This document shows, piece by piece, positions 44,757 to 57,433 of a stretch of 57,433 bases of DNA; the first letter of the stretch is position 1; each line of letters starts with the position of its first letter. A program made the translations under genes and the position numbers. A model generated the notes under the pieces. The model was not told the DNA's origin. It saw only the letters and a program-made list of their open reading frames with translations, and ran no database searches. The stretch comes from a virus (Duplodnaviria > Caudoviricetes), in the IMG/VR virus record IMGVR_UViG_3300033145_001062, positions 1 through 57,433 of that record; one strand, given 5' to 3'.

Positions 44757-45827
44757 TTAGCTTGTTGTTGTTAATACAATAAACATCCCCAGGTCATTAG
44801 CTCCTCGCTTCGGTGTAATGTCTGCACTCAGAAGCGGTTGGCCGTCTGTCCTGAGAACAATCTTCCAAAACGTCTCATCAGTTTCAAAGCCGTATGTTTC
44901 GCTTGTCTCAAGAGATGTGTCTTCATATTTAACATGACGAGACGCTGATATTCTCATTTCCCTGTCGCCTATAAGATAATGCCCGTGACCAAAGTCAGCA
45001 AGGATTATGTCGCCTTCCGTTCCCATTGCCTGGCATTTCTCCGTAGGGATGAACGGTATCCCCCAAAGCATACGATTGCTAAGATCTAGAGCTGTCGCTT
45101 GATTTGCTGCCGGTGATGTCGCCTCGAATAATTCACCTATCACATCGGGATTCAATAGCCAGACAGCGCTTTCCCAGCTTCGTGGGAGTAACCGCTTGGC
45201 CATATTAGCAATATCTCTCCAGTCAATTACTCCAACCGCAGCCCGTGTAACTTGTGTTCTGCATCCGGCCTGTTCAATACCTAAGGGCATTCCACCACCT
45301 GTACCATTGATAAAAGCATCATCTTCAACGAATCGAATAGCCTGCCCGAATGATGTTTTAGCAAATTCGCCAAAACTCTCATAGTCATCCTCAAGTTCAT
45401 TACTAACAAAACAACTGCCTACTAGTTTGTGAACATTTAACTCAACTTTACCAATTGCCGGTTTAGATATAGCATCAACTTTTGATCCTCGTTCCTCTAC
45501 CCAACTAAATGTAATTCCACCAAATAGATTTGAGCTTCTATCAGAATCCTTTAATACTCGTATCACCAGCGAATCTCTTTTCATCGGGAAAACCTTAGCC
45601 CGTGGCCTAACAATCGCATTTTCCATAGCTGCATGATAAATTTCTTTAGCCCATTGTTTCGGGACTAAAGCTCCACCCTGTGAGTCTGTTCCTTCCTCCA
45701 TGTGCCCTGCGGTCTTTCCAAAAATTAGCCGACTATCCGGCTGTCCTTCGCCATCGTAAGCTTTACGGACTTTGACAAGAAATTCACCTACACATTTAAA
45801 TCCGCCCGTTTTGTCTTTATATTCCAT
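44757..45827 (-). CDS. Major capsid protein paralog 2 (HK97 fold)
   Basis: EGTDSQGGALVP, WV.E, EDDAFINGTG.G.PLGI, W..N, GDI.L.DF. Confidence 0.9.
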   Translation of the reverse strand: MEYKDKTGGFKCVGEFLVKVRKAYDGEGQPDSRLIFGKTAGHMEEGTDSQGGALVPKQWAKEIYHAAMENAIVRPRAKVFPMKRDSLVIRVLKDSDRSSNLFGGITFSWVEERGSKVDAISKPAIGKVELNVHKLVGSCFVSNELEDDYESFGEFAKTSFGQAIRFVEDDAFINGTGGGMPLGIEQAGCRTQVTRAAVGVIDWRDIANMAKRLLPRSWESAVWLLNPDVIGELFEATSPAANQATALDLSNRMLWGIPFIPTEKCQAMGTEGDIILADFGHGHYLIGDREMRISASRHVKYEDTSLETSETYGFETDETFWKIVLRTDGQPLLSADITPKRGANDLGMFIVLTTTS

Positions 45828-45836
45828 TTCGATCTC

Positions 45837-47150
45837 TTAGCTTGTGGCGTTATCTAGTACAACAAAAGGTGACATTGAGGTTACAGGTGCAGCTGCATTT
45901 CTAGGAGTTATTACACTCTGCGGCCAACATTGACCAGCAACCCTAAGCACAAATCTCCAGCAATCCTCATCAGTAACAAAAGCAACGTGTGAGCTGAAGT
46001 CTATTGTGATTGGCTGCCGATTGAAAATGAGGTAATACCGCATATCAAAATAACCAACATCGCCTTGTGTACCAAGACTTGGCATTTTCTCACTAATGAA
46101 AAACGGCCTTCCAAAGATTCTGCCAGGGATAGGATTCTGTGCGCCCATGTCTCGATTGATCCAGATAGGATTTGAAGTAGCAGCGGGAGCAGTGTCGCCA
46201 GATGTCATACCAATAAGGTCAGGAAGCACACTAGGATTAATTACCCATACTGCATAAGGATGAGAAGCAGGAAGCATGCAAGCATACATTTCACGTAAGT
46301 CTTCAAAATATAATCGACTAGATGTATTCCTGAGAACAGCCTTTACGCAACTACAATTCTGAATCCCCAACGGTTGACCAGCACCAGAGCCGTTAAGAAA
46401 AGCATCATCTGTAAAATAACCCCATGCAGAACCAAACATCCGCTTAATCAGCGGAACAAGAGCAATGGCAGAATCATCTCGCAGCTCATGTGAAAGATAG
46501 GTTACCCCCGCTAATTTATGCGGGGTCAGAGTCAATTGTCCGAATTCAGGTTTAGTAGCCCCTTTTATTCCCTTCTCTGCTACCCATTTAGCTTGTACTC
46601 CACCGAATACTGTCGTTGCATGAGAGGTGTCATCTACAAATGGAATTTTAATCGAATCTGTTTTAACTGGAGGGATAATTGTAGCCCCATTTGGCATTAC
46701 TATTGAATTTTCAAGAGCAATCATTTGAAGGTCTGATTTAAAAACCTCAGGTACAAGAAATCCACCCTGGCTGTCTTCGCCCTCTACCATATGGCCTGCT
46801 GTTTTAATATTACCTCCAGATGTAATAAAAGTTAATCGTTCATCAACAACTCTTTTCGCCAAGCCAATATCTTTAGCTTTAATTATTGCCTCTAAATATT
46901 CCTCGGGTTTTTCAAACTCTTTGCCTCTCTCAACTGCCTCTTCTTCCTTTTCGGTAGGTTTTAGACCGTCAAGAACTTCATTAACTTTCTTTTTGTCTAG
47001 ATTTATTTTGCTTTCTTCAGCTAATTCACCTAACTTATCCTCAACTGCTTTTTTTGCAAACTCATCAAGATTTTTCCTCGTTGTATCCAGAATATGCTGA
47101 GTGAGTTCAGCTTCTGTCATTGTTTTTTTCTCTTTATTTTCTTCACTCAA
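45837..47150 (-). CDS. Major capsid protein paralog 1 (HK97 fold with N-terminal coiled coil)
   Basis: EGEDSQGGFLVPE, DDAFLNGSGAGQPLGI, SPFVVL; TTG start with GGAG SD. Confidence 0.93.
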   Translation of the reverse strand: MSEENKEKKTMTEAELTQHILDTTRKNLDEFAKKAVEDKLGELAEESKINLDKKKVNEVLDGLKPTEKEEEAVERGKEFEKPEEYLEAIIKAKDIGLAKRVVDERLTFITSGGNIKTAGHMVEGEDSQGGFLVPEVFKSDLQMIALENSIVMPNGATIIPPVKTDSIKIPFVDDTSHATTVFGGVQAKWVAEKGIKGATKPEFGQLTLTPHKLAGVTYLSHELRDDSAIALVPLIKRMFGSAWGYFTDDAFLNGSGAGQPLGIQNCSCVKAVLRNTSSRLYFEDLREMYACMLPASHPYAVWVINPSVLPDLIGMTSGDTAPAATSNPIWINRDMGAQNPIPGRIFGRPFFISEKMPSLGTQGDVGYFDMRYYLIFNRQPITIDFSSHVAFVTDEDCWRFVLRVAGQCWPQSVITPRNAAAPVTSMSPFVVLDNATS

Positions 47151-47340: not shown

Positions 47341-47646
47341 TCATTTGCGTGAAATGAGCTTTGTTAATCGTCGAAATTTATTACGGAAAAACAGGGTGTA
47401 TAATACCTTAAATGGAATTTCTTTGTCACCAACTCTTTCCATAGCTATAGCCCCGTTTTTTCTTCTAATTATTTTAAACGGTTCGTTCAATATAAGTCCG
47501 CTCCGTCCTGTACCAAAGCCTCTGAAAATATCAAAACTATAATTAATGCCTTCAATGTTTACTTCCTGTTTTTTTATATTCTGTTTAATCCTTAACCGCT
47601 TCAAATCAGAACCCCATCCCGTTTCAACATTATCCTTGCCAAACAT
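47341..47646 (-). CDS. Hypothetical protein
   Basis: ORF track; AAGGAG SD. Confidence 0.55.
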   Translation of the reverse strand: MFGKDNVETGWGSDLKRLRIKQNIKKQEVNIEGINYSFDIFRGFGTGRSGLILNEPFKIIRRKNGAIAMERVGDKEIPFKVLYTLFFRNKFRRLTKLISRK

Positions 47647-48060
47647 TTAACGCTCCTTCCTAAATTCCTGATTGATTATGCCAAGGTTATCACTCCACCA
47701 TCGCCTAAAATCATCCCTATCACATTTGAATATCTTTGCCAATTGTGTCAGAGAGTTGCCTTCTTTGTGTTTTTTAACAACTTTCCTGATGTCAAGATTT
47801 AGTCTTTTCTCCGGCTTCTCTTCTAATACAGGAATCTCTTTTTCCAATCTTTTTCTAATTGTCTTGACCATCCCGGGATTTGCTTCAATAAGATTTGTTA
47901 TTACTGTTGCACGCTTATTCACCCACTCTCGCAATCGCTTCTCATTTAGATACATTTCATAAGCAACTTTTTCTGTTGACCAATTCAAAGCCTGCTTGAA
48001 ATAATCCCACTTGACAGCATTCTCTAAGGTTTCAATATGACTTAATTCTTTTTTATTCAT
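47647..48060 (-). CDS. Hypothetical protein with two HTH-like segments
   Basis: STEKVAYEM.L...RLREWV and SLTQLAKIFKC....RRW. Confidence 0.55.
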   Translation of the reverse strand: MNKKELSHIETLENAVKWDYFKQALNWSTEKVAYEMYLNEKRLREWVNKRATVITNLIEANPGMVKTIRKRLEKEIPVLEEKPEKRLNLDIRKVVKKHKEGNSLTQLAKIFKCDRDDFRRWWSDNLGIINQEFRKER

Positions 48061-51000
48061 TCCACCCTCCCTAATTTCCTTTTAATTTTTATATCCACAG
48101 CCTCACCCACAGCCTTACCTAACAACTCCTTCAGATTATCACCACTCAATATCTTCTCAATCGCCTTAGCCAGCCTAGTGTCTAATTCAGGCTTTTTAAC
48201 ATCCTTTTCTATGACCAAGCTCTTCTCTGTTGCAATTTTTGTTTCCTTTTCCTCATCCCTGCTAACCGGCTCAGTCGCATTGTAAAGTTCATCTAGATGT
48301 TCCTTGAGTGCAGTCAAGGCGTCTATTGTATCCTTAACCATCGTACGGTTTTTCGTGCTTAGGACTCGGCCTTCCTTTAGTTCTACAATCTGCTCTTGCA
48401 TCATATTGAGATTTTCCTTGAGTTCTGGAATATCCATGATTCTAAGTTCAGTTACAAGCTTATCGTCTCCCAGGATTACACCTTTCTCTGCTAACTCTGT
48501 GCGCACTTCGCTTCCATCAATAACTGAATCGCCTTTAATTTCAAATTCCGTCTCTTTTCCTGGCCCAGGCCTTTCGCTTCGCCTCATATCACCACCACAT
48601 TTAGGACATTTAATCTTATCGCAATGTTCCTCGCTCTCCATCTTATATCCGCAAGAAATACACTCGCAGTTAAACTTTTCCTGCTTCTCGTCATTGTCTT
48701 TTTTAATCTCTATTTCTTTCGTCATTTTAATATTCCCATCAATCCACTTCACCTTATCCCAAAATGCCTTAACATCAACCTTATTCCCCTTAATTTCCTC
48801 TATCAGCTCCCTCTGCTCAATCAGCTTATCAAGGCTTTTTAGCAATGCCTTCCCTATTCCTAGCTCATCTTCTTCGGCAATCATCTTAGCAAATTCAACC
48901 AATTCTTTCAAATGGGCCCCTGAAAATCCCTTTGTCTTCTCTACGATATCATCAAACAAATCCTTCTCTATATCCCCAGCCCACAGGGTAAGCATCTGTG
49001 TCCTTTCCTTTGATCCTGGCAATTCAAAATTGATAATATGATGGAATCTACCCGGTCTGTCTAGCAAAGCGTCTGGGAGTTTCTCCGGATAGTTAGATGT
49101 CATTATGGTAATCAGCCCCTTATTCTGCTTTATGCCATCCATCTCAGCCTTTACTAAATCTGTCACAAATTCCATTTCACCCCTCAGCCAAGTATCTATA
49201 TCCTCAAGGAAAAGAATCGATGGAGATAAGTCCCGAGCAAGAGAAAAGCCCAAGGCTAAAGCCCTTAGCGGGCCGACCTGCCGGAAATCTCGGCTAGATA
49301 CCCAGATGAATGTCGTATCCAATTCATTCATTAATACCCGGCCCGTCTTTGTCTTGCCTGTACCGGGGGGCCCGATAAATAACAATCCACGCCCTGTAAG
49401 ATTCTTCCCCTTCTTTTCTAAAAAGTTAGCTGATTTGATTATCGAATCCTTATACTTAGAATCTAAAATAAGATTATCCCAATTATCACCTGGCTCATCC
49501 AGGAACTCGCCACTGAGTGCAAACTTTTCACCTCTAAGGAAATTGTTTTCATAAGCCCAATTATGCACCTTATCCAGAAGGTCTTTATTCCATTCTTTAT
49601 TCTCATTTGCCGTTACAAGCGAGACATCAATCCCGCTCCAGCCAGAACTAAATTTCACTATAAGCGGCTTACCATTCGCATCGTAAAAACAGACTCCATT
49701 GATAAGGAAATCATCTGATTTATCAGAATTAAGTTTAATTATCTCAGATACTGGGGGAACCTCCCCACCGTCCCAATTAAAGCTTCTAGTGTCCTTTAAT
49801 TTGAAGTCGCCTAAAATCTTTTTGAACCCGGCCAGATATGTCCCGAGTAATGGACTAGGGATTGAATAGCTATTAAGGAAAACATCCTTAACTTTACACT
49901 CTAAGAATTTTTCATAAAGGGCATAGCTGAACGATGCTATAGGAGCTTGAACTGCTGCTATATCAAATGCTTTAGATAGTGATTTATTCCAGCGTTCCTT
50001 ATATCCAGGCTCTTTTATTTTAATATCTGCAAAATCCTTATTTTCTGAAACCCACTTTTTAGCTTCCGCCATTGTCCATTTTTCCACATCGAAAAGATAT
50101 GTATGAATTTTCTTAACCTCTCCGCAGTAGAGAGCCTTAATTCCTTCCTTTGCCGATATGGTTATTGTTGCTGTTATTTTACATCCTGGATTGACTGGGA
50201 TTCTGTGATATTGGTCGGTCGTTTCGGGCTTTGTGATTGTTTCCTTCTCTTCTTTTGCTCCTGCCTTCTCCGCCTTTTCCCCTTTGATCTCTTTTTCTTC
50301 TTTATCATTTTTGTCCTTTATCACCTCGATTTCCTTGTCATTGTTTGCAATAGGGGGGCTAAAAGTTGTCACCCCATCTTTGCCTTTTATAACCTCTATC
50401 TCGACATCCTTATCCTTCACAACCTCTATCTCTAAGTCTTTTTTGAGACGAGGGGATTTGATTGTAATCTCTCCCTTGCTTACAGCCAGGTTTAAACTTT
50501 GAGCATTTGAGGCAACTGGGACGTCTGAGTGTTCTAACATTAACCATTTTGTATAAATTGTCTTTGCCTTGTCACTCTCACCCATCTCTATCCCATAGTC
50601 CTTTTCAAGAACGCCCTGCCATTCTGCAAAAGCTTTTTTATCATCCTCCCGATTCACAGCTTCAATGGGTATAAATCCAACTGAATTAGAGTTAAGATGT
50701 TTAGCCTTTACACACTGATAAACATCCTCTGCAAACTGATGTTTAGCATAAATCGTCTTAGCTAAGATACCTTCCTTTGTCTGCTTTATCCACTGGTCGC
50801 TACCCACTGGCAAGCCTTTATAGTCGTGGCCATAAAGTACACTTGGAGACTGCCGGAAGTCATCCAGAATAGCTCCACTAGGAATCAATATCTCCCCATC
50901 CCGGTCAAGATGAGGAGTCGTTACCAACCTTATCGCAGCCCTTTCCCCCTCTTTTATTCCAATATCTTTAGGGTCAATCGGAATACCTTTTCGAATAAAC

Positions 51001-51101
51001 TCAATCTCTCCGGCCTTTTTATGTAACTTTTGAGCGTACTTTTTAGTCTTATCCGGGAATAACTCTTTTAGTTTATAGCGATCTGTGCGTAATTCTTGCA
51101 T
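48057..51101 (-). CDS. Prohead protease (HK97 family) fused to an AAA+ ATPase, Zn ribbon and scaffold-like tail
   Basis: DRDGE..VLYGHD..SVGFIP..LE.S.V.V.SN; GPPGTGKT, LFLEDID, SN.P..L..ALLDRPGRF; C..CG...CPKCG; EGRVLS.KN. Confidence 0.9.
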   Translation of the reverse strand: MQELRTDRYKLKELFPDKTKKYAQKLHKKAGEIEFIRKGIPIDPKDIGIKEGERAAIRLVTTPHLDRDGEILIPSGAILDDFRQSPSVLYGHDYKGLPVGSDQWIKQTKEGILAKTIYAKHQFAEDVYQCVKAKHLNSNSVGFIPIEAVNREDDKKAFAEWQGVLEKDYGIEMGESDKAKTIYTKWLMLEHSDVPVASNAQSLNLAVSKGEITIKSPRLKKDLEIEVVKDKDVEIEVIKGKDGVTTFSPPIANNDKEIEVIKDKNDKEEKEIKGEKAEKAGAKEEKETITKPETTDQYHRIPVNPGCKITATITISAKEGIKALYCGEVKKIHTYLFDVEKWTMAEAKKWVSENKDFADIKIKEPGYKERWNKSLSKAFDIAAVQAPIASFSYALYEKFLECKVKDVFLNSYSIPSPLLGTYLAGFKKILGDFKLKDTRSFNWDGGEVPPVSEIIKLNSDKSDDFLINGVCFYDANGKPLIVKFSSGWSGIDVSLVTANENKEWNKDLLDKVHNWAYENNFLRGEKFALSGEFLDEPGDNWDNLILDSKYKDSIIKSANFLEKKGKNLTGRGLLFIGPPGTGKTKTGRVLMNELDTTFIWVSSRDFRQVGPLRALALGFSLARDLSPSILFLEDIDTWLRGEMEFVTDLVKAEMDGIKQNKGLITIMTSNYPEKLPDALLDRPGRFHHIINFELPGSKERTQMLTLWAGDIEKDLFDDIVEKTKGFSGAHLKELVEFAKMIAEEDELGIGKALLKSLDKLIEQRELIEEIKGNKVDVKAFWDKVKWIDGNIKMTKEIEIKKDNDEKQEKFNCECISCGYKMESEEHCDKIKCPKCGGDMRRSERPGPGKETEFEIKGDSVIDGSEVRTELAEKGVILGDDKLVTELRIMDIPELKENLNMMQEQIVELKEGRVLSTKNRTMVKDTIDALTALKEHLDELYNATEPVSRDEEKETKIATEKSLVIEKDVKKPELDTRLAKAIEKILSGDNLKELLGKAVGEAVDIKIKRKLGRVE

Positions 51102-51169: not shown

Positions 51170-51979
51170 ATGTATATATGCAAACACTGTGGAAAAGAAT
51201 TTACTCCTAAATATAAAGTTCTCTCTTGTCATAATCCTCTTTATTGTTCTCAACGTTGTTATCATGAGGCAACAAAAACTGGAGCTTTTAAGACTTGTAA
51301 ACAATGCGGCAAAAAATTTTATATTCATAGAGGTAGAATTAAGCGAGAATTTTGCTCTAAAGAATGTAGGAAAAAATCCAAGCAAATTACTAAAATATGC
51401 CCTGCTTGCAAAAAGCCCTTTACTGTTTATAAATCTATGGGTCAAAGATATATCTTTTGTAGCATGGCTTGTAAAAATAAATTTACCCTTTATAAAACTT
51501 GTCTTAGATGCGGAAAAATATTTACAGCCAAAAGAGAGGATATTAAGTATTGCTCTGAAGAATGCCGGCGCCCACCTGTTTATATTAAATGTTTGAACTG
51601 TGGCAATAAATTTAGAGTGGTTCCGTCTCAAAAAGAAACTAAACGATTTTGCTCCTTCTCCTGCTATAGAAAATATTCCGGAGAAAGCTCTATTGAGAAA
51701 ATAATTAGAAAATCCCTTGACAGGCTGAATATTAAATATATTCAAGAATTTCAAATTAATAGCTATAGTGTTGATTTTTACCTCCCAAATAATAATATAT
51801 GCCTTGAAGTAGATGGAAAATATTGGCATAAAGATGTTAAAAAGGATGCCCTAAGAGATGATAAGCTCAAGGCATTGGGATATAGTATCGTTCGCATAAA
51901 AGAATTAGACATAATAAATACAGACAATATTGATAATTTAGTCATTGTTAATTTAAACATTCATGCCTCTTCAATATAA
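51170..51979 (+). CDS. Zn-finger-repeat plus Vsr/DUF559-like endonuclease (probable homing endonuclease)
   Basis: Five C..CG/K..F...(F/Y)CS..C repeats, then S.IE...YSVDFY....LEVDG.YWH...RD..L...GY..VR. Confidence 0.88.
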   Translation: MYICKHCGKEFTPKYKVLSCHNPLYCSQRCYHEATKTGAFKTCKQCGKKFYIHRGRIKREFCSKECRKKSKQITKICPACKKPFTVYKSMGQRYIFCSMACKNKFTLYKTCLRCGKIFTAKREDIKYCSEECRRPPVYIKCLNCGNKFRVVPSQKETKRFCSFSCYRKYSGESSIEKIIRKSLDRLNIKYIQEFQINSYSVDFYLPNNNICLEVDGKYWHKDVKKDALRDDKLKALGYSIVRIKELDIINTDNIDNLVIVNLNIHASSI

Positions 51980-52896
51980 GCTGCTATGCTGCATTTGCAA
52001 AGAGGGTGTAAAGGGGGCACATTAATTTCTTCATAATCCATTTTTAATTTTTGTTCCTTTCCGTCTATTTTAACTATTGATTCATCACCTAAATCAAAAA
52101 AATTAGTTTCTAAGCTAATTATAGTTCCATCTAATTGTTCACAATGTGGACATAGACGAGGCCCGAAATATGCCACCCAAATCTTCTTCTTAACCACTCC
52201 GCTCTGCCTGTATACATTTAACGCTGCCTTATTCGATGCCCGGATAACCTGATTCTGTGCTATTATCTCAGCCCGCTTAAATCCCCAGTCTTTATAAGTC
52301 TCATAAACCCGATTTGTGAGCTCTGGTACTCCCTCGCCTGCCTCTATACCTTCGATAAGCGTTGCCCTCAGCTTTTTAACATTCACCTCTTCAAGCTTCT
52401 CTGAGAACATAGGCATATAGCTTTCCAGCCATTTTGTAACCTCTGGATTCTGCACATCAAATATCATATCAAAATCATAGAGCTCAACAACTCGTGGCCC
52501 CTCTTTTTCCATCACCTCAATGCATACATTAGTCGCTCCATTAGCCAGCTTCTTCTCAAATATAGACGTAGGATATAAAATATCATCAACCTTATCTTTT
52601 GTAAGCCACGCCTTTTTCATTTTCTTTATATTGGCTATCAGGATCCGTTCCTCTTCGCCCCATACCCTTTTTAGCATCTCCTGAAATTTCTTTTCAAACG
52701 GTGCAATAGATTTAAAGAGTGCGTTAAACAGAATATCATGGGCTAGCTTTTTATCGTCTTCTTTTAGTTCCTTATTTACTGCGATGTATATTTCTTCTTT
52801 AAAAATTGAGGCTGCCTTACCGGCACATATATCATTTAAATATTGCCATGCTATCTGCTCGGCAAGTTTGTCAGTGAGGAGGTTTTGTTTAATCAT
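51961..52896 (-). CDS. Minor head / head morphogenesis protein (Mu gpF-like)
   Basis: RA..IA.....A.N, K.W......C..C..LDG, PPLHP.C.C. Confidence 0.88.
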   Translation of the reverse strand: MIKQNLLTDKLAEQIAWQYLNDICAGKAASIFKEEIYIAVNKELKEDDKKLAHDILFNALFKSIAPFEKKFQEMLKRVWGEEERILIANIKKMKKAWLTKDKVDDILYPTSIFEKKLANGATNVCIEVMEKEGPRVVELYDFDMIFDVQNPEVTKWLESYMPMFSEKLEEVNVKKLRATLIEGIEAGEGVPELTNRVYETYKDWGFKRAEIIAQNQVIRASNKAALNVYRQSGVVKKKIWVAYFGPRLCPHCEQLDGTIISLETNFFDLGDESIVKIDGKEQKLKMDYEEINVPPLHPLCKCSIAAYIEEA

Positions 52897-53321: not shown

Positions 53322-54764
53322 TCATCCTAAAACCTCCTTTGCATATTTTATCACCTTAGCTGTAAATTCCCTTATCTCCCCCTCATCCACCTCGCCCAGG
53401 CTATTTATAGGCACTAACCGGCCATCAACAAGTAACTCATTTGCCAGCCCCCCAATCGCCTCCAATCCCTGCTCCAATCTCACCTCATCTCGTGTCGATA
53501 TGCCAGCCTTTACCCGCTCAGTCTGCTCCCTCAGTAATAATGCCCTATCCTCCGGCACCGGATTATCAAACACACAAAAAATATTATCGTCATATAAAGG
53601 TAAAAACTTCTCATTTAACTTATCAGCAAGCCTATCACAACGAGGCAATACACCATTCTTGGAATGCCTATAATCTGCAACCTTAGCATTGGCAAGGTTG
53701 ACGCTCTTGGAGGTTAATACACCTGGGGGGATATCAAATCCTAAGCATATCTCTTCCATGTTAATATAACGGCCTTCAATAAAGTTCATCTCCTCCGGTG
53801 TCATTGTATCACTTTTAAGGTCCATGTCTAAAGGGGGAATAACTAATTGTCCTGATTTTTTTGCACCGGCATAAGCTTGAGCAAACTGAACTTTTAGCCT
53901 CTCTTGATCTTTATCGCTTATATTTACACCAGCCTTTGGTGACAGCACCCCGCCAATTCTTGCCTTGTTCTCAAACAATGCTTTTTCAAAATCATCCATC
54001 TGCTCCCGGAGATATACAGCAGTTGCTACACCCCTAACACTGCCAAAGCCTGTAAATACGTTATTCGGATTCGGGTATGTAAAGAAAATTATCTGATCCT
54101 CTGGAATCTCAACGTTTATCGCTCCCGTCCTGTATCTATAGCTCTTTATAGGTTCATCTAGATTATCCCCGAATACAGGGTTAATGAATTGTGATGGTAT
54201 AGGCCAAATCTGCTCTGGCACTCCTAGTGCATCCTTCCTTAGCCACCAATAACATTCACCTGTCAAGTCCTGATATAAAACGGTATATTCCTTCAAATCC
54301 CTCGAATTATGTTGCGGATTAACTTGCTTCATAAGGTCAAGCCAGACATGGCTTGTTACCTCCTCTACATCTGCCGCTTTAGTTAGCCAAGGGTCAAGGT
54401 TCTGTCGTGAATATATCCAAGTCTTTAGCTTATTACTCAGCGGCCTTGTCTCAATTGTGCGATAAATTTTAGTCTTCTCTTTCTTTGCCACGTATAGCCG
54501 CAGTCGCTGAGACGCTACAGTCTGGCTGTTCAACTTTGCACATATATAGACAAATCCCTGAAATGCCCGGATAAACTCTTTTTTTGTCTTTGGTTCCTTG
54601 CCAGCCAGTAACCCAGCCCCCCACATCTCCAAGTCCATAAATGCGGAGTCATCACTCATTCCTGGACGAGATAGGCCGGTTGTTGAAAATACCTCATCTA
54701 AGCCTTTGAGATAATGACCCTTTGAGCGGCCTATCATGTTCGCTATTCTTTCTATAACATTCAT
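53322..54764 (-). CDS. Portal protein (HK97 family)
   Basis: VYIC....SQTVAS, LTGECYW, F.N.A..GG.L, I...F.IPP, T.DE.R...GL. Confidence 0.93.
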   Translation of the reverse strand: MNVIERIANMIGRSKGHYLKGLDEVFSTTGLSRPGMSDDSAFMDLEMWGAGLLAGKEPKTKKEFIRAFQGFVYICAKLNSQTVASQRLRLYVAKKEKTKIYRTIETRPLSNKLKTWIYSRQNLDPWLTKAADVEEVTSHVWLDLMKQVNPQHNSRDLKEYTVLYQDLTGECYWWLRKDALGVPEQIWPIPSQFINPVFGDNLDEPIKSYRYRTGAINVEIPEDQIIFFTYPNPNNVFTGFGSVRGVATAVYLREQMDDFEKALFENKARIGGVLSPKAGVNISDKDQERLKVQFAQAYAGAKKSGQLVIPPLDMDLKSDTMTPEEMNFIEGRYINMEEICLGFDIPPGVLTSKSVNLANAKVADYRHSKNGVLPRCDRLADKLNEKFLPLYDDNIFCVFDNPVPEDRALLLREQTERVKAGISTRDEVRLEQGLEAIGGLANELLVDGRLVPINSLGEVDEGEIREFTAKVIKYAKEVLG

Positions 54765-54768
54765 AATT

Positions 54769-56241
54769 TTACCCCACCACTATAACATCCCCAATCGTCT
54801 CATATGGATTGTGAAAACACAATAAGAAAGCATCAGCCTTGTCCGGTGATGGGAAGCCTCGTTTTTTATAATCTTTCTTGCTCTCAACAACCCGTCTGCC
54901 TTTCCTGTCTAGCTCAGGTAGATATTTCCTATTCACCAACTCTTTCTTCAGCCTGTCATCCTCTGGACATGCTATCTCGTGGATAAATTTAGATACCTCA
55001 AACCACATCTCCGATATCATGTTGGGATATTTATCCGGGTCATTAGCTGATTGCTGGAAGTTAATCCTAATAATATTATAGCGTCTCCGCTCCATGATAT
55101 TTGTCAGCCCTCCACCTACTCCACCATCATCTATCTTTATCCGCATATTTTTATTTCGCCCTACAAATATCTCCAGCTCATCGGCCAGAAACTCCAATTC
55201 CTCCGTAGGTGGTAAATTTTGCGTCGGGATAACTTTACTATCAACAACCTTTAGTCCCTTTCTCCTGTAAAATACTGTGTCATCATCGCCCCCTCTAGCC
55301 ACGTCCACGCCGGCTTCTTCCTGCCCCTCGACATTAAAATTCTTATCATCCCAATTCTCCTCCATCTTCTTAACCTGGCTCAACTTGATTATCGTATCAG
55401 CACCCTGGTCAGCTATCTCACCCTTAACCTTTGTAAGATATAGTACCGAATCTTTGCCCCATTCCCTCTCACACTCCTCAACCCATGCCGGACTTGCAAT
55501 CTGGACGCCTAGCTCTGCCGGGGTCATCTCTTTTCTCTCAAATCGCTCCGGGTGCTCTAAGTCCGGTACGTCTATATATTTGAATGCCTCACCTGTCATA
55601 TATGGCGATTCATCGGCTGAAATGTGAATCTTATTCCAGTCTGACTTTTTATCCTCAAATGCTTTGTAGAAGTTTTCACCCACTCCCACGCCATCCGTTG
55701 TTGATATAACCAGCCAGCGACAAAACCCACCCGTCATCAACCCCCGTACTGAGTCCCATTGCCATTGCTCAATGCCTTTAGCCTCGTCAAATATAAATAG
55801 CAATGCCGGGGCATGCCAGCCCTCAGCTCTTGCCGGTTTATCCGTGCTGAATCCTATAGCATAATGGTCAGCCTGATCTGTTTTTATAATCGTAGTCAGG
55901 CATTCACCTTCAAGTTGTATCCGGCTTGTCTGATATATCTGGCTTATCTCAGCCCATAGGAGATTTTTGATTTGTGAGAATGTGGGAGCAGTTGTGATTA
56001 CTTTAGAGTTGTCAAAATTATTGAGGAACCAGACAGTTACTTCTGCCGCTGAAAACGTTTTGGAGCTTCCGTGGCAAGCTCTAACTGCCGTCTTCTTATT
56101 CTCTGCGACAGACTTTAATATCTCCCTTTGCTTTTTCCACGTTTTATGACCCAACGCCCATTCTACGAAAAAGACAGGATTCTTCCTGCATTCCTGCATG
56201 AGAGTGGCTTGGACTTGGATTGACTCTTCAGCTAGTTGCAA
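54769..56241 (-). CDS. terL: Terminase large subunit
   Basis: AVRACHGSSKT, TTAPT..Q...LW.EI, FDEA.G, GVDVARGGDD.T, SPDKADA. Confidence 0.93.
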   Translation of the reverse strand: MQLAEESIQVQATLMQECRKNPVFFVEWALGHKTWKKQREILKSVAENKKTAVRACHGSSKTFSAAEVTVWFLNNFDNSKVITTAPTFSQIKNLLWAEISQIYQTSRIQLEGECLTTIIKTDQADHYAIGFSTDKPARAEGWHAPALLFIFDEAKGIEQWQWDSVRGLMTGGFCRWLVISTTDGVGVGENFYKAFEDKKSDWNKIHISADESPYMTGEAFKYIDVPDLEHPERFERKEMTPAELGVQIASPAWVEECEREWGKDSVLYLTKVKGEIADQGADTIIKLSQVKKMEENWDDKNFNVEGQEEAGVDVARGGDDDTVFYRRKGLKVVDSKVIPTQNLPPTEELEFLADELEIFVGRNKNMRIKIDDGGVGGGLTNIMERRRYNIIRINFQQSANDPDKYPNMISEMWFEVSKFIHEIACPEDDRLKKELVNRKYLPELDRKGRRVVESKKDYKKRGFPSPDKADAFLLCFHNPYETIGDVIVVG

Positions 56242-57319: not shown

Positions 57320-57433
57320 CTGAATATCTTATTTCTGTTATCTACAATCTGCTTCTCAAAATTAGATGTAATTTTAGTACAATTTTCTTTTTGATTTTTT
57401 ATATCTGTTTTTATACTCCCTATGTCGATTTTC
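57320..57433. repeat. Terminal direct repeat, right copy
   Basis: Identical to 1-114. Confidence 0.97.

Follow-up and report, generated by a model that had tools for sequence, protein, structure and literature searches.

An HK97-type prohead protease fused in frame to an AAA ATPase with Bcs1/YjoB-like features in uncultured phages

Results

One gene encodes a prohead protease and an AAA ATPase

The IMG/VR record IMGVR_UViG_3300033145_001062 (Duplodnaviria; Caudoviricetes), analyzed here over its full length of 57,433 bp and hereafter called the window, is a complete virus genome with direct terminal repeats (its first 25 nt recur at position 57,320) and carries almost all its genes on the minus strand. 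Among them is a polyprotein gene (48057..51101, minus strand) that encodes 1014 amino acids (aa) plus a stop codon in one frame without an internal stop, and in which a prohead protease is joined to an ATPase. An earlier note on this DNA, made from the sequence alone, had divided the open reading frame (ORF) into a protease, a charged linker, a small domain, a domain of ~170 aa, an AAA module, a Zn ribbon and a helical tail. This division was borne out by the frame and by the domain parse of an AlphaFold2 model, which was built from a 132-sequence alignment and has a mean predicted local distance difference test score (pLDDT) of 80.1. The ~170-aa domain (the N-domain) and the AAA module are together called the cassette below. 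A GGAGG ribosome-binding site lies upstream of the ATG of the polyprotein gene, and a Shine-Dalgarno sequence of at least 5 bases is absent at every other in-frame start. This single strong start suggests that the product is made as one chain; a nested internal gene in the style of lambda C/Nu3 was ruled out on the same grounds.

The N-terminal part (residues 6-208; 50478..51086, minus strand) is an HK97-type (S78) prohead serine protease domain. The polyprotein matched Pfam S78 with an E-value of 0.037 (14.6 bits, under the cutoff of 21), TIGR01543 (proheadase_HK97) with 1.7e-5 (1.9e-6 for the domain alone; 25-28 bits, under the cutoff of 59) and the PHROG head-maturation protease with 4e-4. 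S78 was matched at E≤1e-3 by 25 of 46 diverse relatives (best E 1.5e-12), and the modelled fold matched the phage head-maturation protease A0A6J7XH88 of BFVD (E 1.5e-12; template modelling score of 0.65 on the target). Residues H92 (50826-50828), S140 (50682-50684), G142 and E190 (50532-50534) are invariant across 132 aligned sequences, and among 104 cassette-bearing sequences the conservation of H92, S140 and E190 is 90% or higher; we take H92 and S140 to be the catalytic His and Ser of an HK97-type protease. The identity of the protease, a weak match for the window protein alone, is firm at the family level.

The cassette begins with the N-domain (residues 357-560, with a folded core at 391-560; 49422..50033, minus strand), an alpha+beta fold that may be like that of the Bcs1/YjoB N-terminal domain, and continues with a classical-clade AAA domain and its lid (residues 561-775; 48777..49421, minus strand). 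The AAA module matched Pfam PF00004 over residues 573-693 (E 9.9e-20) and the FtsH family TIGR01241 (E 8.7e-22), and the solved structures closest to it by sequence are VAT, p97 and Cdc48 (E ~1e-29). On the minus strand, Walker A GPPGTGKT (residues 577-584) occupies 49350-49373, exactly where the earlier note had placed it, Walker B ILFLEDID, with the acidic pair ED, 49194-49217, sensor-1 N670 49092-49094, and RPGRF (residues 682-686), which carries the two Arg of the second region of homology (SRH), 49044-49058. Residues K583, T584, E633, D634, D636, N670, R682 and R685 are invariant in 104 sequences that are 29-48% identical to the query, which contradicts the possibility raised in the earlier note that the AAA domain is degenerate in relatives.

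By its Walker A, sensor-1 Asn and two-Arg SRH the module falls in the classical clade, but its Walker B departs from the hhhhDE form of that clade: the acidic pair is inverted to ED family-wide, and of the filled cells in the alignment, 121 of 122 hold E633 and 123 of 124 hold D634. In pore-loop-1 (RDFRQVGP, 49269-49292, minus strand) the position that aligns with the VAT/p97 aromatic is Q608 in the window protein, and across the family its 120 filled cells hold Y (39), R (35), H (15) and K (12) among others. The former description of the module as an intact classical AAA+ ATPase therefore holds for Walker A, N670 and RPGRF, which are invariant, and has to be given up for Walker B, which reads ED instead of DE, and for the pore-loop aromatic.

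Between the protease and the cassette lie a disordered charged linker (residues 209-290; 50232..50477, minus strand; pLDDT <50) and a small domain of four strands and a helix (residues 291-355, KPETTDQYHRIPV...; 50037..50231, minus strand), the latter also present in relatives without the AAA cassette. A motif count found three KD-x-EIEV-[VI]-K repeats in the linker (residues 221-230, 231-240 and 254-263), and a fourth EIE[VI] motif, MTKEIEIKKD (residues 793-802; 48696..48725, minus strand), stands directly after the cassette. The pattern E[IV]E[IVLF] occurs five times in the polyprotein (residues 32, 224, 234, 257 and 796), against two occurrences in the ~15,200 residues of all remaining minus-strand ORFs of at least 80 aa. 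In relatives, those with a second protease subtype included, the form KDLEIEVVKD stands directly behind the protease, and more copies are found in the linker and after the lid. The EIE[VI] motifs are candidates for autoprocessing sites.

Downstream of the fourth motif is a Cys4 Zn ribbon (residues 812-845, ~807-845 in the AlphaFold2 model; 48567..48668, minus strand) with weak Pfam and NCBIfam Zn-ribbon matches; it is kept in relatives without the AAA cassette. Its position shifts, since it stands before the N-domain in eight distant loci (L092, L097, L101, L105, L111, L120, L139 and L140), and three close loci (L001, L003 and L037) have it behind the EGRVLS helix, which indicates module shuffling inside the linker regions. 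The chain ends in a helical tail (residues 864-1014; 48060..48512, minus strand), modelled as helices over residues 864-1009 with disordered breaks. The tail carries an invariant ELKEGRVLSxKNR motif (48345-48389, minus strand) and an invariant C-terminal ...G-R/K-V-E (48060-48089, minus strand); in an alignment of 21 tails, positions K46, G48, R49, S52, R56, G148 and V150 are invariant. This tail is presumed to be the capsid-targeting or scaffold part, and no separate scaffold gene was found in the head modules examined (the window and the loci of its relatives).

The fusion recurs across uncultured phages

A word-index search returned 177 homologues, all metagenomic; the motif counts among homologues rest on the 120 that were listed. 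AAA motifs were present in 108 of these 120, together with the same N- and C-termini, and most of the listed homologues share the N-terminus (M-ELRTDRYKLK... or MK-ITE-LKF...) and the C-terminus (...KK-G-K/R-V-E) of the family. An exhaustive HMMER search gave 674 representatives at E≤1e-30, the best 150 of which all score at least 341 bits. The stretch commonly shared in the HMMER matches corresponds to query residues ~365-775, that is, the N-domain and the AAA module as one unit.

Two scans of viral contigs yielded 146 loci and 82 locus ORFs with the cassette (L002/L081 and L006/L085 are contigs fetched twice). The order portal, (MuF), [protease...N-domain-AAA], major capsid protein (MCP) is conserved from 25% to 90% capsid-protein identity. 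The family protease profile matched 71 of the 82 cassette-bearing ORFs. Among the 11 that it missed, four have ends cut by the contig edge, and in L094 the protease lies upstream in another frame. In L102, L116, L118/L119/L143 and L121 the N-terminal 170-350 residues gave no match to the family protease profile or to Pfam S78, and they may represent a different protease or another carrier domain. No stand-alone copy of the cassette was found in the head modules of the 146 loci, and the cassette is obligatorily tethered to the head-module polyprotein. A chimera or mis-assembly, which the earlier note had considered as a source of the fusion, is ruled out: over 100 metagenomic clusters, independent of one another, have the same architecture between portal/MuF and the capsid genes, as do the 82 locus ORFs. 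From this recurrence we conclude that the fusion is real and selected.

Cultured phages gave a different picture: none of 68 matching records covers at least 80% of the query, the matches spanning either the AAA part or the protease part. Among the 50 best BFVD matches, no protein has both a protease and an AAA module. Seven loci were found in GTDB genomes, two of them on long contigs of Melioribacteraceae and Pirellulales metagenome-assembled genomes, which is consistent with these two being prophages of bacteria. Genomes with the fusion span 47 to 99 kb. In three homologues (P0086, P0193 and P0196) inteins of ~320-400 aa split the P-loop at query residue 580/581; among 46 relatives, four matched Pfam Intein_splicing and a single one matched HNH_3. 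Some members of the family are very long (1275-1460 aa; P0161, P0164, P0166, P0176, P0182, P0203 and P0225) and carry 600-950 residues past the AAA module, in which no Pfam family was detected at E≤1e-3.

Full-text searches of the literature turned up no prohead protease-AAA fusion, and a haloarchaeal-virus preprint (10.1101/2025.02.15.638363) names a 'prohead protease' only in a legend. HK97-type proteases, protease-scaffold fusions and stand-alone phage BCS1-like ATPases are all known; their in-frame union at the scaffold position was found neither in that literature nor in cultured phages.

Motifs and modelled fold suggest a Bcs1/YjoB-like ATPase cassette

To compare folds, we used the full model and a separate model of the N-domain plus small domain (61-sequence alignment, pLDDT 83.8). 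In a Foldseek search of the PDB with the N-domain model, the top three matches were Bcs1 (6sh3, 9gs2 and 9gsn; E ~1e-4, probability 1.0), followed by START-like folds. With the full model, Bacillus subtilis YjoB (7w42) came first (E 1.1e-17 over 426 columns) and Bcs1 entries took ranks 3-13 (E 4.5e-17 to 1e-12 over 376-414 columns), whereas Rpt, FtsH and Cdc48 ranked below them and were aligned over ~250 AAA columns only. The best BFVD matches are stand-alone proteins of ~400-450 aa from phages and giant viruses, several of them named BCS1. A weak lead in the same direction came from Atlas, where a cluster with a score of 0.79 has BCS1_N in 13% of its members.

The sections of Kwon et al. (2022, PMC9565160) drawn on here report that ED replaces DE in Walker B 'exceptionally' in YjoB and Bcs1, which are active ATPases nonetheless, and that the N-domains of the two proteins have a common fold without sequence identity. 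Both proteins are also described there as using an internal chamber, YjoB as a chaperone specific for its substrate and Bcs1 to translocate the Rieske protein in its folded state. The ED form of Walker B, the variable pore-loop aromatic and the fold of the whole unit thus argue for the Bcs1/YjoB type rather than for an unfoldase of the FtsH/Cdc48 type, and the lack of conservation of the aromatic is what would be expected of an enzyme that does not thread its substrates. The earlier note had taken RPGRF as the mark of FtsH/Cdc48/proteasomal unfoldases; these are indeed the nearest relatives by sequence, but the motif is too coarse to settle the type, and the Walker B, the pore loop and the fold fit Bcs1/YjoB better.

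Several comparisons speak against this affinity. In VIA-align the N-domain scored Z 6.0-7.0 with Bcs1 and Z 7.4 with an unrelated Flpp3 chain, and in a wide VIA search nothing stood out (best Z 7.4 for an unrelated chain; Z 5.7 for mBcs1). A profile of the N-domain retrieved neither Bcs1 nor YjoB from the PDB sequences, its lone match being at chance level (E 0.11), and Pfam BCS1_N matched neither the polyprotein nor any of 46 diverse relatives. The 60 best PDB matches of the family AAA profile are Cdc48, p97, AFG2, YME1, PAN and the like, without Bcs1 or YjoB. Taken together, the structural models and the motifs point to a cassette that would be built, and would work, like an AAA of the Bcs1/YjoB type; the AAA sequence alone does not favour this type, and we do not claim membership in it as proven.

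The cassette is an optional insert

Homologues with and without the insert, which the earlier note had suggested looking for, were both found. Twelve complete-looking homologues of 562-681 aa (P0039, P0047, P0063, P0073, P0101, P0102, P0109, P0112 and P0116-P0119) have the same termini and no AAA module. In alignment with the query they retain protease, EIEV linker, small domain, EGRVLSxKNR helix and terminal G-K-V-E, in most cases the Zn ribbon as well, and miss precisely query residues ~357-795. Identity with the query across the shared parts is 72% for P0039 and 70% for P0047. On a tree of the protease domain (120 rows, with 6 of the 18 no-AAA rows being possibly truncated proteins), presence and absence of the AAA module need at least 11 changes, five of which are forced by well-supported branches.

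A separate AAA gene that would compensate for the missing cassette was ruled out at 22 cassette-less loci with downstream tail or capsid genes, where no match to the N-domain or the AAA module was found within up to 10 kb, and in three cassette-less relatives with 91-100% complete genomes, where none was found anywhere. In a positive control with five cassette-bearing genomes, the same search gave a single match in each of the five, always within the polyprotein ORF. Capsids of cassette-less phages can be close to those of the window: MCP1 and MCP2 are 80% and 85% identical in L019, and 83% and 81% identical in L037. Since close relatives whose capsid proteins are near-identical do without the cassette, and complete genomes of relatives lack it too, it appears to be an accessory and not a core maturation step.

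Identities along the chain show that the cassette recombines independently of the protease. In L003, L004 and L084 a cassette that is 79-90% identical to that of the window stands beside a protease that is just 34-36% identical, and L007 has the reverse pattern. By the identities in L113 (55% for the AAA module and 42% for the N-domain, against 25% for the MCP and 30% for the portal), the cassette is older than the shell and better conserved. In P0047, P0112 and P0118 the same linker region holds unrelated inserts, and these inserts of AAA-less relatives match no Pfam family. In P0112 and P0118 an insert with a ...SYKLPHH...GVRAAMGA..GARGG motif, likewise without a Pfam match, is present in the linker or tail of the polyprotein.

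Discussion

Possible roles of the cassette in the prohead

In HK97-like assembly the protease is co-assembled in the prohead via its C-terminal part, and it then digests the scaffold and itself. Given this co-assembly, the polyprotein should carry many ATPase copies into the prohead. The reading that we favour, with a probability of about 0.4, makes the cassette an accessory chaperone, driven by ATP, that the protease-scaffold polyprotein brings into the prohead. The chain would be built into the assembling prohead via its tail, as other prohead proteases are, so that many copies of the ATPase would end up in or on the nascent shell. There the ATPase would assemble into rings of six or seven subunits with a chamber at the N-domains, and the ring would spend ATP on holding, releasing or moving head proteins in the folded state, be they capsid subunits or internal proteins, without threading or unfolding them. 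The protease would then cut the disordered linkers, possibly at the EIE[VI] motifs, and free the modules. The cassette would be auxiliary to assembly, given that close relatives without it have capsids of the same kind.

Some points count against such a chaperone. Its incorporation into the prohead, ring formation, cleavage sites and substrate are all inferred. The cassette is dispensable, and a morphogenetic role can only be auxiliary or host-dependent. A chaperone need not be fused to the protease, and the fusion fits cargo loading equally well. Finally, EIE[VI] is absent from the capsid proteins of the window, so that it is not a general maturation site and may be a mere linker repeat.

Cargo loading is the basis of the strongest competing explanation, which develops a suggestion of the earlier note that the protease serves as a carrier and which we consider somewhat less probable than the chaperone, yet compatible with everything seen. 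Here the protease-scaffold chain would be a vehicle, and the freed ATPase, as a folded protein of ~50-60 kDa too big for exit through the capsid pores, would stay in the head and be ejected with the DNA into the next host, to act there as a takeover or counter-defence enzyme. Head-packaged proteins have precedents in the internal proteins and Alt of T4 and in MuF-toxin fusions. The optional presence of the cassette in close relatives (at least 11 changes on the tree; complete genomes without it), its recombination independently of the protease in L003, L004 and L084, the unrelated inserts that take its place in the linker of P0047, P0112 and P0118, and its constant tethering to a capsid-targeted chain are all as expected of such cargo. 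However, the insert is nearly always the same cassette and not one of a polymorphic effector set; at L113 it is more conserved than the capsid genes, unlike fast-evolving counter-defence cargo; and a ring ATPase would need unfolding, passage through the tail and reassembly.

An ATP-dependent maturation protease is improbable. The AAA ring would in this case unfold or pull out segments of the scaffold or delta-domain and pass them to the tethered protease, in the manner of Lon or FtsH, or remodel the shell, much as the earlier note had proposed with ATP-driven scaffold removal or capsid remodelling. That protease and AAA share one chain (in 71 of the 82 locus ORFs) agrees with this, as do the classical-clade assignment with both SRH arginines, the sequence proximity to Cdc48, FtsH and PAN, and the Tyr at the pore-loop position in 39 of 120 relatives. 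The proposal is weakened by the Bcs1/YjoB features and by the optional cassette: the pore-loop aromatic is not conserved and is Q in the window protein, the ED Walker B and the fold of the whole unit point to a non-threading enzyme, and maturation proceeds with no cassette in relatives that have the same protease and capsid proteins. Moreover, the N-terminal protease is separated from the AAA module by a disordered linker of ~82 residues and the small domain, and the length of this spacer is variable in relatives, which makes a stacked chamber unlikely. Least probable is a selfish in-frame passenger, spread by recombination, maybe aided by a homing endonuclease and inteins, and tolerated in the disordered linker without a role for the phage. 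Its patchy presence and mosaic identities, the inteins of some copies and the DUF559/HNH-type endonuclease gene that adjoins the polyprotein gene on the opposite strand would fit a passenger. It is nonetheless hard to reconcile with catalytic residues that are invariant over 104-132 sequences, with a cassette that remains 40-55% identical where the capsid proteins are at ~25%, and with the lack of a nuclease or recombinase of its own in Pfam searches of the cassette; the 674 representatives at E≤1e-30 speak for long purifying selection on ATPase function.

A broader statement would cover both the chaperone and the cargo, namely that a large uncultured group of tailed phages builds its heads with an ATP-driven Bcs1-like ring carried into the prohead by the protease, which positions or translocates folded proteins, or is stockpiled and injected as an enzyme; we hold this to be less likely than not.

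Comparison with known systems

Ordinary HK97-type prohead proteases are ATP-independent proteins of ~200-400 aa. The polyprotein resembles the HK97 gp4-type protease (Peptidase_S78, TIGR01543) and the protease-scaffold fusions in its N-terminal fold, its His and Ser motifs and its place between portal/MuF and MCP, and, like the latter, it has a long helical C-terminal part in place of a separate scaffold gene. It differs in the ~440 added residues of N-domain and AAA, and in the Zn ribbon and the small domain. Lon and FtsH also have AAA and protease on one polypeptide; in contrast, the polyprotein has the protease first, a long disordered linker, another protease fold, the ED Walker B and a non-conserved pore-loop aromatic.

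The likeness to YjoB (7w42/7w46), which the sections of Kwon et al. (PMC9565160) drawn on here present as a chaperone of the AAA type that is soluble, hexameric and chambered by its N-domains, extends to the fold of the whole unit, the ED Walker B and the soluble state; YjoB has no reported transmembrane segment. However, the identity is only ~19%, and YjoB is outside the 60 best PDB sequence matches. YjoB is also a stand-alone cellular protein, restricted to Bacillales according to its authors in the same sections, whereas the unit of the window is embedded in a phage polyprotein. Mitochondrial Bcs1 (6sh3, 6ukp, 9gs2 and others), a heptameric translocase of the folded Rieske protein, gives the top Foldseek matches of the N-domain and has the ED Walker B, but it is anchored in the membrane by an N-terminal helix (as stated in the part of PMC9565160 used here), BCS1_N is not matched in the polyprotein, and the VIA Z-scores are no better than those of unrelated folds. 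The stand-alone BCS1-like ATPases of phages and giant viruses (BFVD A0A6J5RXQ2 and A0A5K0U7S7) are the same two-domain unit of ~400-450 aa, encoded by separate genes. For the phage proteins, translocation of folded proteins into the head has been proposed, in the passages of Iyer et al. (2021, PMC7824862) considered here. The homologue gp37 of Erwinia phage Frozen lies among non-structural genes, beside a second AAA and a metallopeptidase.

Across hundreds of phage lineages, an AAA ATPase with an intact catalytic site, to judge from sequence, has stayed joined to the maturation protease. HK97-like head assembly is taken to be ATP-independent apart from DNA packaging, with scaffold, protease and shell self-assembling. 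If the ATPase acts in the prohead, an energy-dependent chaperone or loading step would be added to this textbook pathway, as the first step in capsid assembly that consumes energy ahead of DNA packaging, and the Bcs1/YjoB type of AAA would gain a viral, experimentally tractable substrate. If the ATPase is instead injected cargo, the fusion would represent a general way of loading large enzymes into heads. The natural pairs with and without the cassette, whose capsid proteins are 80-85% identical, are ready controls, and make the fusion directly testable.

Other genes of the head module

The head module of the window comprises the large terminase (54769-56241), the portal (53322-54764; Pfam Phage_portal, E 6.5e-45), a Cys-rich protein of 98 aa between the portal and the MuF-like protein, and the MuF-like protein itself (51961-52896). 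Wedged between MuF and the polyprotein gene is a gene on the plus strand (51170-51979), apparently the sole convincing plus-strand gene of the genome. Its product of 269 aa has repeated Cys-rich fingers and a DUF559/Vsr-like endonuclease domain (DUF559/HNH-type; Pfam E 4.6e-10, PHROG HNH endonuclease E 1e-21). Some relatives have no gap where the window has this gene (in L004, MuF ends 10 nt ahead of the protease), and the product therefore looks like a free-standing homing endonuclease.

Downstream of the polyprotein gene, on the minus strand, are genes for a helix-turn-helix (HTH) protein of 137 aa (47647-48060; HTH_28, E 1e-4) and, between it and MCP1, a protein of 101 aa (47341-47646). The HTH gene is found in the same place in many relatives, whether or not they carry the AAA cassette (L001, L004, L018, L019, L037 and L084) and is missing in others; a gene for a DNA-binding protein is unexpected inside a head module. 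Two HK97-fold capsid proteins follow on the minus strand, MCP1 of 437 aa (45837-47150; Pfam Phage_capsid, E 3.7e-35) and MCP2 of 356 aa (44757-45827; Pfam Phage_capsid, E 1.4e-31). They are tandem paralogues, only the first of which has an N-terminal extension of ~125 aa, and the pair is kept in relatives with and without the cassette.

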